A stretch of DNA of 64,000 bases from Octopus vulgaris. Taxonomy: Eukaryota. This document shows positions 2,126 through 45,800 of this stretch, piece after piece. The number at the start of each line of letters is the position of its first letter. Positions within the stretch are counted from its first letter, which is position 1. The position numbers and the translations under genes were made by a program. Where the stretch lies: the NCBI GenBank assembly GCA_951406725.2, contig OX597835.1:15748001-15812000 (forward strand), written 5' to 3'. A model generated the notes under the pieces. It had not been told where the DNA came from. It ran no database searches and was given only the letters and a program-made list of their open reading frames with translations.

Positions 2126-5100
2126 GTAATTTCATTAAGGCTATATTTTCGTTATTATGGGTTTACATTTTTCTAGCTGAAATATAATATTTATTCCATG
2201 TAATCAAAGATTAATTATGGTTTTTAGTGTTTTACTTTCACTGCTATTGACTCGATATAAATGTATTGAAATGAAAATTTTCCGTCTGTGCGACATGGAC
2301 AATAATTAATTAAATATATGTCATATTTCGTTGACTTAATTTTCTTTAATTTTAACCCCATACTTACATGTCATTAAAGCGAAAGATAAGATAGTCTAAA
2401 GAAGTTCTAGCTGGGTGTTTTAATATTAATAATTAGTGTTCGCCCCCTTAATGGATATTATAACGAACAACGTATTTACTGTTTTCACACCTTCTTACCA
2501 TGTTTTGTTCTCCACGGTAACTGCTGTGTATTTACTTTTTAACAGTTGAAATATGTCACAAACATATTTCGGTAAATTTTTACCCATATTTCAACTAACC
2601 TAAATTTTACAAATAGTAAATAAATAAAAATGAAAGAAATAGCAGGTGATTTTGTTTTAATATAAATAAGTTTGTGGTATAACAAATGTAGATGGAGTTT
2701 TGGAATAGCTGTCCCTCGAAGTCTTACAGGAAAGAAGAAAGAATTGTCCCTTCATTTTTCAGTTTTCCTGTCTTTCCACGTACAATACGAAAATGTCTAA
2801 GAACAAATATTAATGCCAGTTGAGCACGGTTCTGATCCACCGAAGTCAACTTTGCCTTCCAATTTTCCGTAGAAGATAAAATAAAGTACCTATTAGATAC
2901 TTTGCTTTGTGATTGGATTTGGTTGATGGAAACTGAAAGAAGCCTGTTATATGTGTGTGTCTGTGTTTGTTCCCACCCATCACCACTTGACAACTGGTGT
3001 TGGTGTGTTTACATCCCCATAACTTAGCAGTTCAGCAAAAGAGACTGATAGAGTGAGTACTAGGCTTAAAAATAAGTCCTGGGGTCGATTTGTTTGATTT
3101 AAAAAAAAGAAAACCTTACGGTGATGCTCCAGCATGGCCACAGTCAAATGACTGAAACGAGTAAAAGTGTAATTTAATTTTTAGAACAATATTGTAGGGT
3201 AGGTCTTAGGGCCCAGATCTGGTCAGGTAAAATATTTGGGCTGGATCTGGCTGGTTTAGATGCTGAAGGGTCAAGGCAATGTCATTTGATAAGCAAGCAG
3301 CTGTCCCTCTTTACAATTTTATTAATAACTGGTTGTTGATTGCCAGTTAATTAAATTAAAGTTCCTTGGTCTTGTTATTAAATTACTGAATATATTTCTG
3401 CATTTTTAGTGAAATTGCCAAATGTGATGTCTGCCAGAAGCAACCATTTAAATACAGGTGTCCTTGTTGTTCAAAGCAAACCTGCTCGTTAACGTGTGTT
3501 AAGCAGCACAAGAATGATACAGGTTGTTCTGGTGTTCGAAATAAAACTGCTTTTGTAGCTGTTGATGATTTCAGTGACTTAAATCTTTTAAATGGTAAGT
3601 AAATGTCTTCTCTATTTAATATAACTTTATTATTATTTAATTTTCACAAAAAAAAAAGAAGTTAATTTCATTTCTTTCATTTTTTATAACAATGAAATTG
3701 CTGTCATCATCATTATCATTTAACGTCCGCTTTCCATGCTAGCATGGGTTGGACAATTTGACTGAAGACTGGCGAACTAGATGGCTGCACCAGGCTCCAA
3801 TTTGATCTGGCAGAGTTTCTACAGCTGGATGCCCTTCTTAACGCCAACCACTCCGTGAGTGTAGAGGGTGCTTTTACGTGCCACCGGCAAAAGGGCCAGT
3901 CAGGCAGGACTGGCAACGGTCACCCTCAAATGATGTTTTTTACGTGCCACCTGCACAGGAGCCAGTCCAGCGGCACTGGCAACGACCTTGCTCGAATATT
4001 TTTTCACGTGCCAGTAAAGCGACGCTAGTAATGATCATGCTCGAATGGTGCTTTTTACGTGCCCCCAGCACGGAAGCCAGTTTGCTGCTCTGCCAACGAT
4101 CTCACTCTGATGGTGATAAGCTCGTAAACATTTTATAAATGGTTTCGGGAAGTATATATAAGTACAAGGGTAGCTGTGTGCGTGAGAAGCTTGCTTTGCA
4201 ATCAGTTGGTTTTGGGTTCAGTCCCACTGAGTGACACCTTGGATAAGTGTCTGCTACTATAGTCCTGAGATTAACAATGCCTTGTGAGTAAATTTGGTAG
4301 ATGGAAACTGGGGGGGAAGCCCATCATATATATATATATATATATATATAGGTCTATTAAAATTACTAAGTCTCTCTAAAAGAGATTACGGCAGCGTTAC
4401 TGGAAATTAATAGTTATCGCCATACTAATATGGCAATCTTATAAATATAAGACTAAAGCTGTCGATGATTAGCTCCAAGAGACCACCGCCTCAAGCTAGC
4501 TATTTGACACACAATCTGCATCCATTATAGACTTTCGAACATAGTATGGCGATAACTATTAATTTCCAGTAACGCTGCCGTAATCTCTTTTAGAGAGACT
4601 TAGTAATTTTAATATTTCTATTATTGAAAACAAGTGGATATATTCCACTGAAACTAGGTAAATAGATTCTTCGAACAGGGACAGTCAGTAGCGACAACCT
4701 GCTGGGTCTGACTACGCTGCATTGATAAAGGGCAACTACCCTGAAACGCGTCTGCAGCTGTCTGACTGGCAGGATGAAGCGGCTGACCTCCCCTGTTCGA
4801 AAGTCTATAATGGACGCAGATTGTGTGTCAAATAGCTAGCTTGAGGTGGTGGCCTCTTGGAGCTAATCAACGACAGCTTTAGTCTTATATTTATAAGATT
4901 GCCATATTAGTATGGCGATAACTATTAATTTATATATAGGTCATTATTGTTTAATGTTTGCTTTCCATGCTGGCATGGATTGCACAGTTTGACATGGAGC
5001 TGACTAGCAGGGAGTTCTCCGTACTCCGGTTGTCTGTTCTGGCATGGTTTCTATGGCCGGATGCCCTTCCTAATGCCAACCACTTAGCAGTGTGCCAAGT

Positions 5101-42800: not shown

Positions 42801-45800
42801 ACTGAAGCAAAAGACTAAAAGAATACTGTAGACGTATAATTGATTTATTGCACATAGCAACTAAATCTTATATGGACCCCAGTAGAGAACCACTGACCTA
42901 AGGTGACATACAGAGGGACTTAACCTGAAGCCATACAGCCTTGCATGCACCCTCACTATAACAAATTTTCCAGTTTCCATCCCATGTTGAATTATTAGCA
43001 AATAAATTTTGTTTTTCCAAAATATTATTTCAGTGGTTTTCAACCAGGGTTCCGCCAGTACAGTGCAGGGGTTCTGCAAGAAGTTACAAAACTGCAAAAA
43101 TCGGCAGTCATTTTTAAGTCTCCTGTGCAGATATGTGTGCATAAGACTATTAAATTATTGCACAGGGGTTCCTCGAGCCAGTGGAATGTTTCCTTGGGGT
43201 TCTGTTCCAGCAAAAAGTTTGAAAAGCACTGTATTATTTACTTACCATCGGAGTGAAATTTATTCACGTTGTCAGTATTTATTTCATCAGAAGTAAGGAA
43301 CTTTGATAAACGTGTCACAGCAACATGAGCCTGGAAAAGATTTGGTCAAAAATAATTTTAAACTAATTCCAGTTTGGAAGATCTCAAAGAACACACATGG
43401 AGCTACAAATAAGAGTTTCAGGTTTTGGTACAAGGCCAGGAATTTTGGGGGAGGGGGCAAGTCAATTACATCGACCCCCCCCTCCCAGTTCTAAACTGGT
43501 ACATATTTTACCGATCCTGAAAGGATGAAAGGCAAAGTCGACCTCAGCAGAATTTGAACCCAGAAGGTCAAGACAGATGGAATGCTGCTAAGCAGATCGT
43601 CCAGCTCGTTGCCTTACGTGGAGCTATAAATTCTGCTGAGACCCCCTTTGGTCAAGAATTTCAGGAAAGTGCCTTACCTGGACAAGAAAGGGAATTGCCA
43701 TTGGAAGAAGATTAATTGGCAGCCGCAGGATGTTGAAAAGTGAGAGAGACACAAAGGCAGTTTGTGCATCGATGTAATGATCGTCTTTAAGAAGGACGTA
43801 AGTAGCAAAGGTGGCAACCGTTACCTTTGAAATAAAAGAGAAAATTCCAAAGTAAAATTGCAAAATTAATCAATGGCAATCTATATCAGCTGTAAGTTGA
43901 TGTATTATTAAAAAGAAAAAAAAAAGAAGAATTTTAATTATTTAACAGTAATCATAATAAAAGATGAAAGCATTCAAATGTTTTGTTTAATTGTATAAAG
44001 TCATTTCTTAATGAGTCAAAAATAATGTCCAAGATATTTTATTTTGTCGTATAAAAGACAGAATAAAAGTTGACCAAGGATTTGTGAGTACTTACGAGAA
44101 ATGGAGCACAAAGCCAGCAGAAAGTAGAAAAGGCATTAAGGTATGCAGCTTTTCGAAGGACTGCCAGTTCTTGTTGCCTGATCTTAAGAATTTTTTTCTC
44201 GAGAGATCCTTCCCAAGCATAGAGTTTAAGAATCTGAATAAAGTAAAAAAAAAAATAAAAAAGAAAATAAAATAACTCAGTCTTTAATCATTCATTGTCT
44301 TACTATCAACGATTGATCTGGCTTTAATCATTTTGATCAAATGCTTTTGTCTTATATTTTTTTCTTTTAATTTTATCTTTTTACTCGTTTCAGTAATTAG
44401 ACTGTGGCCATGCTGGGGCAGCACCTTGAAGAATCTCAATCGGATGAATTGACCCCAGTGCTTATTTTATTTTTAAAGCTGGGTTCTTATTCGATCGGTT
44501 TCCTCTTGTCAAACTGCTAAGTTATGGTGACAAACAAAAACACACACACACAACAAGCTTCTTTTAGTTTAAGTCTACCAAATTTACAAAGCTTTGGTTG
44601 GCCAAGAACCAACACTTACCTAAGGTACCATGGAGTGGGACTGAACCTGAAACCAGATGGTTGGGAAATAAACATTGTTTTATGATGTGATTATTTCTAC
44701 AAAACAACTGTCTGTGACAGAGATAAAAATCATTTTAATGCCCAATTTTCCATGCTTGCAGGAATCAAATGGAATTTGTCAACGCAGATTTTCTAAGGCC
44801 GGATGCTCTTCCTGTCACCAAACTTCACCCGTTTCCAAGCCAAGTAATATTTCCCCATGGCTGAACATACTTTCACAAAAGATTGAAAACCAACGACACT
44901 TAATATGATGGTGATGCTTGTTTACAACTCTCAAAACAAGGACACACACACACACACACACACACACACACACACACACACACACACACACACACAGACG
45001 ACTTCTTTCAATTTCCACCTTTAAAATCCACTCACAAAGGTTTGGTTGTTCCAAGGATATAGAAGAAACTCGCTCAGTGTACCATGCAGTGGGACTGAAC
45101 CTGAAACCACAAGGTTGGAAATCAATGTGTTTAACCACACAACCATGCTTGTGCCTATAAAAAAAAAGGCATAGATTTTGCATGCGAGCTAGATTGCGTA
45201 TACATATGTGTACATGCATTTGTGTGTATATTTTAGCTTTGTATTTATACGTCTGTATATGTATGTGGTCTGTGCACATCTGTGTATGTTGATGTATATA
45301 TGTATAGTTTAATATGAATATGTACTGTTGTGTAATATTTTAATGCATTTTAACATTTTAATTTCAATTTCCATGTATTAATTATATTTCCTTTATTAAT
45401 GACAGTATGTATTTTAACCAAAGATTCGATGTAAGGTTTTTTCCTCGAATTTTATAATTTTATATATATATATAGAGAGAGAGCTCATTTTTGTTTATCG
45501 CTTGAAAATTGACCGTTATTTGTAAAGGACCAATCAAACAAGTCCATTTTTAAAGGTGTAGCGTTTATACTAGTCTGGATAGAATTGACATATCGGTTCT
45601 ATTCTAGCAAAAACTGTCCGACGAACAGGAACGTGAAACTCAGAGTAACAGGTTTTGTTGAATTTTCTGCTGCTTTAAATAATATATATATATATATATA
45701 TATATATATATATATATATATATGGCCAGATAACTGAAGAGATGGTGGCATGGATTTCCACCTCGGCATCCGAAACTCGGAGTTTTATCATGGCTACCAA

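Follow-up and report, generated by a model that had tools for sequence, protein, structure and literature searches.

Seven hammerhead ribozyme motifs lie in introns of two genes within 64,000 nucleotides (nt) of Octopus vulgaris DNA (GCA_951406725.2, contig OX597835.1, positions 15,748,001 to 15,812,000; the whole stretch is referred to as the window). They are very probably the ends of seven separate families of mobile elements: four are pseudo-long terminal repeats (pLTRs) of Penelope-like elements (PLEs), joined in longer copies to the genes of such elements; two are likely older relics; and one is likely a retrozyme moved by Penelope proteins. The system is of a known kind, PLE pLTR fragments plus a retrozyme; it adds the density of the motifs, two family-wide variants of the catalytic core, and junction evidence on the state of the template and on retrozyme mobilisation. 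Comparisons with published work refer to those parts of each source that were covered. The motifs are named F1 (4716), F2 (31856), F3 (34133), F4 (39191), F5 (39952), F6 (45605), and F7 (45723), and belong to the following features:

4355..4541, minus strand: F1 inverted arm, beginning beside an (AT)n tract at 4326-4350
4542..4931, plus strand: F1 insertion, 1.07 units of a 365-nt non-coding tandem repeat of retrozyme type, sense to an intron of the ZNHIT6-like gene
4716..4758, plus strand: F1 canonical type I hammerhead, intact; U3:A8, helix I of 6 bp, helix II of 4 bp, helix III an ACGCGU palindrome; predicted cut after 4752
31773..31921, minus strand: F2 pLTR fragment of a putative Neptune/Nematis-type PLE, with an inverted tail piece at 31922-31947
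31856..31905, minus strand: F2 hammerhead; family-wide G3:C8, U17, and helix III AAUAUU; one helix II mismatch in the window copy
34053..34243, minus strand: F3 old pLTR-like fragment, ~80% identical to other copies; short inverted arm to ~34265; no parent gene found
34133..34233, minus strand: F3 hammerhead, decayed (GAAA to GGAA); CUGAKGA, GAAA, and ACAGCUGU are kept in relatives
39190..39335, plus strand: F4 pLTR fragment of a putative Hydra-type PLE, antisense to the ABCC1-like gene
39191..39283, plus strand: F4 hammerhead, intact; C3:G8, helix III ACAUAUGU; predicted cut after 39272
39874..40026, minus strand: F5 old pLTR-like fragment, 72-88% identical to other copies; decayed hammerhead at 39952-39985 (U4A, G12A); no parent gene found
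45174..45682, plus strand: F6 3′ untranslated region (UTR)/pLTR fragment of a putative Hydra-type PLE
45605..45660, plus strand: F6 hammerhead; family-wide C at position 4, with a helix II mismatch in the window copy
45682..45723, no strand: (TA)21 tract that separates the F6 insertion from F7, a probable target
45722..45900, plus strand: F7 pLTR fragment of a putative Hydra-type PLE; intact hammerhead at 45723-45796 with C3:G8, U17, and helix III ACUCGGAGU; predicted cut after 45784

Hammerhead Motifs in the Window and Genome-Wide

An earlier note on this DNA had reported a hammerhead topology at all seven places, and direct reading of the letters confirms it. A strict type I descriptor, which admits C3:G8, U3:A8, and G3:C8 cores and requires at least 4, 3, and 2 bp in helices I, II, and III, finds three matches in the window (4716, 39196, and 45729), i.e., F1, F4, and F7; 20 local dinucleotide shuffles average 0.1. 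The remaining motifs fail for different reasons: in F2, helix II GCGAC has become GCAAC; in F3, GAAA has become GGAA and helices I and III are weakened; F5 carries U4A and G12A; and F6 has a C at position 4 and one broken helix II pair. When the descriptor is loosened to admit F2 and F6, it returns 49 matches vs. a shuffle mean of 40, and F3 and F5 are caught by none of three looser descriptors applied to the window. By structure alone, the window copies of F2, F3, F5, and F6 are not above chance; they are real hammerheads only by way of their families, while F1, F4, and F7 stand on the strict descriptor. Rfam yields zero hammerhead matches in the window at E ≤ 10 and none at gathering score in four ribozyme-bearing stretches, and the monomer fold z-scores of the window motifs range from +0.3 to -2.2.

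How common are such motifs elsewhere in the 2.8-Gb genome? In 97 evenly placed 10-kb stretches (970 kb), the strict descriptor finds 58 matches within 36 stretches, vs. 2-6 in each of four shuffles; the real hit rate is thus far above that of shuffled sequence in the window and genome alike. The corresponding density, ~55 intact motifs/Mb, gives an estimated ~154,000 genome-wide (bootstrap 102,000-214,000), and the proposal that this genome is very rich in hammerheads is borne out. The rate of one motif per ~9 kb given in the earlier note was too high: intact motifs come about once per 18 kb, and the window, with three in 64 kb, is typical of the sampled density. The cores are C3:G8 in 40 sampled matches, U3:A8 in 15, and G3:C8 in 3; helix III is perfectly palindromic in 30 of the 58, vs. 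4 of 19 shuffled matches. Other descriptors have given published counts of 126,247 in axolotl, >6,000 in a coral, and ~9,000 minimal motifs in Xenopus; the estimate also exceeds the 2,000-9,000 per genome of Cervera and de la Pena (2014; PMC4209133), whose descriptors differ.

Two other hammerhead families are seen in this genome. One, with a U3:A8 pair, is frequent (L141, L143, L150; five matches in the first 570 kb sampled) and has a UUGACAA core, a weak helix II, and an ACCGGU helix III. The other (L161, L377, L407), often in inverted pairs, has a long helix III, ACAGUWCUAGUCCUGU, and might fold as a monomer.

Seven Families and the Decay of Their Copies

That the motifs belong to different families, as the earlier note held, is supported: each retrieves its own multi-copy family, and the seven are mutually unrelated by blastn. 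First-look genome candidates number 2998, 905, 1697, 1888, 132, 1769, and 3669 for F1 to F7, respectively. Fetched copies pass the strict descriptor in 17/20 cases for F1, 11/15 for F2, 3/15 for F3, 18/20 for F4, 0/15 for F5, 0/15 for F6, and 15/20 for F7. The positions broken in the window are restored in the passing relatives of F2 and F3. The window copies of F2, F3, and F5 are therefore taken as decayed members of hammerhead families; F6 copies fail because their core change (C4) is family-wide. Copy-to-copy identity in F3 and F5 is ~75-80%. Exact family patterns match 6,905 times for F2, 1,885 for F6, and 202 for F1, and the reversed control gives 0.

Helices covary in F1: between its subfamilies, helix I alternates between GCUGCA/UGCAGC and GCUACA/UGUAGC and helix III between ACGCGU and ACAUGU, i.e., by compensatory changes. 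Helix III is a perfect palindrome in F1, F2, F3, and F4 and has one central unpaired base in F6 and F7; dimers of F1, F4, F6, and F7 are predicted to pair through it. At the window loci dimer cleavage is unlikely because each copy is a lone motif without a same-family partner on its strand.

Penelope-Like Parents

The proposed link to open reading frames for Penelope reverse transcriptase (RT) and GIY-YIG endonuclease holds for F2, F4, F6, and F7 through their longer copies, in which the hammerhead lies 0.3-1.3 kb behind the RT + GIY-YIG gene; for F3 and F5, no upstream gene was found in the loci covered. The parent gene is upstream in F4 copies L032, L034, and the near-full-length L359, in F7 copies L005 and L017/L121, and in F6 copies L070/L123. 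L359 has the layout of a textbook PLE: (TA)n, an inverted tail arm, a near-full gene, the 3′ UTR, the hammerhead, and (TA)n. The F2 parent is an uninterrupted 487-codon RT-endonuclease frame inside a large inverted arrangement (L361:1785-3245, minus strand), with YVDD, a CX3CxxC linker, and a CCHH GIY-YIG; its 3′ UTR is common to L362 and L364. The open L361 frame suggests that F2 is a young family. Pfam lends only weak support (GIY-YIG at E 0.037; RVT_1 at E 0.004, in the relative P0007). The window itself holds no PLE protein remnant. A PLE gene near F5 copy L109 was rejected as a parent, being in the opposite orientation, and the F3 hammerhead layout resembles Hydra motifs, which is a lead only.

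To judge from protein motifs, F4, F6, and F7 are probably Hydra-type PLEs: F7 has the CxCx5C linker and CxxC without CCHH, F4 has CxxC + CxH, F6 has a decayed linker + CxH, and the close relatives P0241-P0243 have all Hydra marks plus DKT. F2, with its CX2-5CxxC linker and CCHH in the C-terminal endonuclease, is probably of Neptune/Nematis type, two clades which these marks do not tell apart. Published Hydra-clade PLEs (Craig et al., 2021; PMC8557442) share a C-terminal GIY-YIG without CCHH, the CxCx5C linker (F7), CxxC + CxH near the end, (TA)n targets, inverted 5′ arms, and an unusual helix III that is nearly palindromic, ACUC-N-GAGU, in which position 17 is A or U (F6, F7). In File S2 of that study the Octopus bimaculoides Hydra hammerhead is laid out like F7 and a coral one like F6; all Hydra rows there read CUGA, whereas F6 has C at position 4. 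The F7 protein resembles the printed Hydra-1_Obim by eye, and the family motifs searched for in the supplement covered gave no match.

The kind of element is therefore not unannotated, as the earlier note had it: the O. bimaculoides Hydra PLE is listed with its hammerhead (Craig et al., 2021), and 31 Penelope-like families with recent activity appear in an O. vulgaris repeat annotation of 2026, whose main text does not mention ribozymes. Literature on hammerheads and octopus or cephalopods yielded Craig et al. (2021) and a twister paper. Minimal metazoan PLE pLTR hammerheads (Cervera and de la Pena, 2014; PMC4209133) likewise occur as single, dispersed, truncated copies with a bulged base before helix II and a palindromic helix III.

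F1, a Canonical Hammerhead in a Tandem Unit

The assignment of the motifs to PLE pLTRs plus a probable non-LTR retrozyme stands, with four tied to RT/GIY-YIG genes and F1 tied to a tandem unit; the description of all of them as minimal fails for F1, a canonical hammerhead in a 365-nt unit that has 42% GC, no gene, and a circular fold z of -7.3. Among 30 pattern-picked copies, a few of which are two motifs of one locus, 16 are longer than a single unit; the 3′ end falls at one or other of two sites in 28, and an inverted arm lies upstream in 14. Copies, mostly 0.7-1.5 units long, run round the unit junction, and there are one dimer and three motifs at 365-nt spacing. The core pair is U3:A8 in 99 of the first 100 listed among the 202 pattern matches, and the window copy is young (96-98% identical to other copies). 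The CAAAUA loop of many copies recalls the Schistosoma ribozyme.

Metazoan non-LTR retrozymes (PMC7229834; bioRxiv 10.64898/2026.07.22.740005) resemble F1 in their canonical type I hammerhead, 170-400-nt monomer, GC below 45%, strong self-pairing, lack of genes, and tandem copies. F1 is unlike them in its U3:A8 core, its length of mostly 0.7-1.5 units, and its directly PLE-like junctions. That PLE proteins integrate retrozymes was proposed earlier from co-occurrence and phylogeny, and the F1 junctions make it likely that this family is such a case; Octopus is absent from the main text of Cervera and de la Pena (2020; PMC7229834). The PLE genes that precede F1 in L052, L053, and L360 were rejected as parents: they belong to a neighbouring element, with (AAT)n between. 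A second retrozyme array, L124:3076-4520 (G000:C1, ~20.003-20.005 Mb), has a 359-nt unit (five on the plus strand, two on the minus), a canonical C3:G8 hammerhead, and a circular fold z of -4.2; it is unrelated to F1 outside the ribozyme layout.

Unusual Catalytic Cores in F2 and F6

Two families carry changes in the core itself. With the F2 pattern left open at positions 3 and 8, the first 100 listed of its exact matches have G3:C8 in 95 and C3:G8 in none; arms chosen regardless of the core have G3:C8 in 67 of 79. In F6, C4 is present in 91 of the first 100 pattern matches listed. Among 49 F6 copies, U4 occurs in 10 and a C-to-U change at a neighbouring CpG also in 10; C4 is likely the family state because U4 is only as frequent as that change.

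Parts of this are familiar: U3:A8 is known in nature and was reported by Cervera and de la Pena (2014), and U4C is known from a viroid. G3:C8 as a family state sets F2 apart from the hammerheads of that study. In print, G3:C8 was found as an engineered partial rescue: in PAc, a Poseidon element of Anolis, the C3G/G8C double mutant retains some activity (Frangieh et al., 2024; PMC11167929), whereas in octopus the pair is natural, in thousands of copies. Natural G3:C8 was not found in the literature searched, which did not extend to Lunse 2017, where G3:C8 or C4 may be listed. The family-wide G3:C8 and C4 cores appear to be new details, as does the crowding of 5′ ends immediately ahead of the ribozyme and away from its cut site.

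Copy Ends and a Possible Mechanism

If the hammerhead cut the RNA that is copied, F2 copies should begin where? Relative to helix I, the cut site is at +43, and among 100 arms picked by a 3′ motif, from 10,117 matches of that motif, only three have their 5′ end around it (+40 to +49); 49 end between -17 and -11 and 75 between -17 and +9. An inverted partner is present in 62 of the 100, and 3′ ends cluster at ~+130 and ~+190. F6 copies, picked by core, mostly begin within 10 nt of helix I; the ends of F4 and F7 are more spread. PLE-type tails here are ~60-180 nt, longer than the usual 30-40. Fold-back at helix I was rejected as the origin of the main F2 boundary, accounting for single copies only (L004 and the window F3).

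The F2 boundary is compatible with both an initiator-like start and a splice acceptor. Long F2 copies (L361, L362, L364) have a branch-point-like CTAAC, a pyrimidine tract, and a YAG that ends 13 nt before helix I; acceptor-like sites are seen by eye in F3, F4, F6 (window 45589-45608), and F7, as in Drosophila virilis Penelope, which has an intron that ends at helix I (Cervera and de la Pena, 2014) and an internal promoter. Contigs from four presumed RNA runs, set against a long F2 copy, show no joint at the candidate acceptor; transcript starts are not visible in contigs.

A cycle in four steps would fit these observations. It would start from the arrangement seen in long F2, F4, F6, and F7 copies, a hammerhead behind the RT + GIY-YIG gene. 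As the junctions and Frangieh et al. (2024) suggest, the endonuclease would then nick AT-rich or (TA)n DNA, and reverse transcription would prime internally, at either of two positions downstream of the hammerhead; this would account for two things that are found, the pair of fixed 3′ ends in each family and the inverted arms set head to head. Most complementary DNAs, as the counts for F2 show and as is seen in F6, break off no more than ~20 nt upstream of helix I rather than at the cut site; the template would therefore be mostly uncut RNA, ending at, or with RT stalled near, a promoter or splice-acceptor point. Finally, the ribozymes would need a dimer or protein help, so that lone intron copies would be mostly inert and decay; cutting would likely matter only in tandem parents and in F1 multimers, giving small circles. 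PAc is similar in having two internal RT starts that give the tail, and AT-rich targets; uncut RNA as its main template and its protein-assisted cleavage agree with the copy-end pattern in octopus.

Weighing the Readings

Could the seven motifs be chance matches chosen by eye in AT-rich, repeat-rich DNA? The failure of four of the seven under the strict descriptor, the 49 vs. 40 matches of the loose one, the silence of Rfam, and monomer fold z-scores of only +0.3 to -2.2 are what chance would produce; yet strict matches (3 vs. 0.1, and 58 vs. 2-6), the restored positions in relatives of F2 and F3, the family patterns (6,905, 1,885, and 202 vs. 0 reversed), and the PLE genes of four families reduce this reading to a negligible one. 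It is refuted for F1-F4, F6, and F7, and F5 has its family alignment, in which 0/15 copies pass. Several points do weigh against seven families of PLE ends and a retrozyme. The sets of fetched copies include the window copy, and similarity search is biased toward the subfamily seen in the window; 24 loci of F3, and 15 of F5 plus chance hits, yielded no parent gene. The clades are named from protein motifs, and DKA and RWL stand in the F4 copy where Hydra has DKT and RWK, a region that the F6 and F7 copies do not include. The F2 reference stopped at -17; ends further upstream were judged by eye, and a few copies do continue past it. The F2 core is no better conserved than its flank (variant letters 5.8% vs. 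4.3%), so the copies decay neutrally, as expected if inert, and selection on cutting is not demonstrated.

Other readings concern single families. F1 might be the pLTR of an undiscovered autonomous PLE, or a gutted PLE, amplified as partial tandems without a self-propagating circle; PLE-type junctions favour this, as does the finding that only one of nine Xenopus retrozyme dimers cleaved (Li et al., 2026; bioRxiv 10.64898/2026.07.22.740005). It is nonetheless improbable: in 50 fetched F1 loci what precedes the unit is more of the unit, an inverted arm, or flank, such PLE matches as occur upstream being few and either weak or set apart by other repeats, and the hammerhead is of the canonical retrozyme type in copies that cross the unit junction and include a dimer and three motifs spaced at 365 nt. 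Somewhat more doubtful is the idea that short F2 copies are an independently mobile, non-autonomous element of ~210 nt with its own internal promoter, akin to a short interspersed nuclear element (SINE). The sharp 5′ boundary at ~-15, frequently with one additional G such as the copying of a cap would leave, and the large excess of short copies over long ones (the 10,117 3′ motif matches) speak for it, but copies that bear an RT, 95-97% alike, have the identical sequence at their 3′ end, the boundary also suits a splice acceptor (CTAAC, pyrimidines, YAG), and repeated composite junctions share flanks and hence spread within larger duplications. Because of these shared flanks, the recurrence of identical composite junctions in F2 was not accepted as proof of self-mobility. 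That some intron ribozymes have been co-opted to regulate their host genes by cutting pre-mRNA is very improbable: F1 is intact and sense to the ZNHIT6-like intron, and canonical coral retrozyme monomers cleave efficiently, but F1 is young (96-98% to others) and shows no sign of locus conservation, and in the ABCC1-like gene the three sense motifs are decayed and the two intact ones antisense.

A bolder synthesis goes beyond the assignment to PLE ends and a retrozyme, and it is offered as a speculation that may well be wrong: octopus would have one of the densest known hammerhead sets (~55 intact/Mb); Penelope families would have multiplied after a G3:C8 or U4C change by copying uncut RNA that ends just before the ribozyme, leaving the hammerhead a folded landmark at the promoter or the intron boundary more than a cutter; and F1 junctions would reveal the transport of retrozymes by Penelope proteins. 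These data bear on two open questions, the reason why hammerheads are retained in PLEs and the agent that mobilises the retrozymes of animals. A family of thousands with G3:C8 and another with U4C offer natural tests, and the copy ends argue for an uncut RNA template in vivo, matching PAc in vitro. The estimated ~150,000 intact motifs, of which Rfam detected none in the window or in the four stretches tested, matter for the annotation of cephalopod introns; taken singly, the seven copies in the window are ordinary insertions.

Host Genes and Other Features of the Window

The intronic placement in two genes is upheld:

3390..10475, plus strand: ZNHIT6/BCD1-like gene, exon frames 3390-3599, 8398-8601, and 10239-10475; zf-HIT, BCD1
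15691..60658, minus strand: ABCC1/MRP1-like gene, 27 exon hits

F1 lies inside an intron of the former, and F2-F7 are spread over four introns of the latter, an exon of which has its best non-insect relatives in O. bimaculoides (87%) and Argonauta. F1, F2, F3, and F5 are sense to the host transcript and F4, F6, and F7 antisense; the split within the ABCC1-like gene between three decayed sense motifs and two intact antisense ones involves too few motifs to test. A dinucleotide tract lies within 60 nt of four of the seven motifs, vs. 12% of random places.

Introns of the ABCC1-like gene also hold minisatellites of 32, 36, and 18 nt (window 37243-38430, 33297-33757, and 20380-20656, respectively). 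SINE-like repeats are very abundant, at 7250-7434 and ten more places, with 11-16 copies per family in the window.

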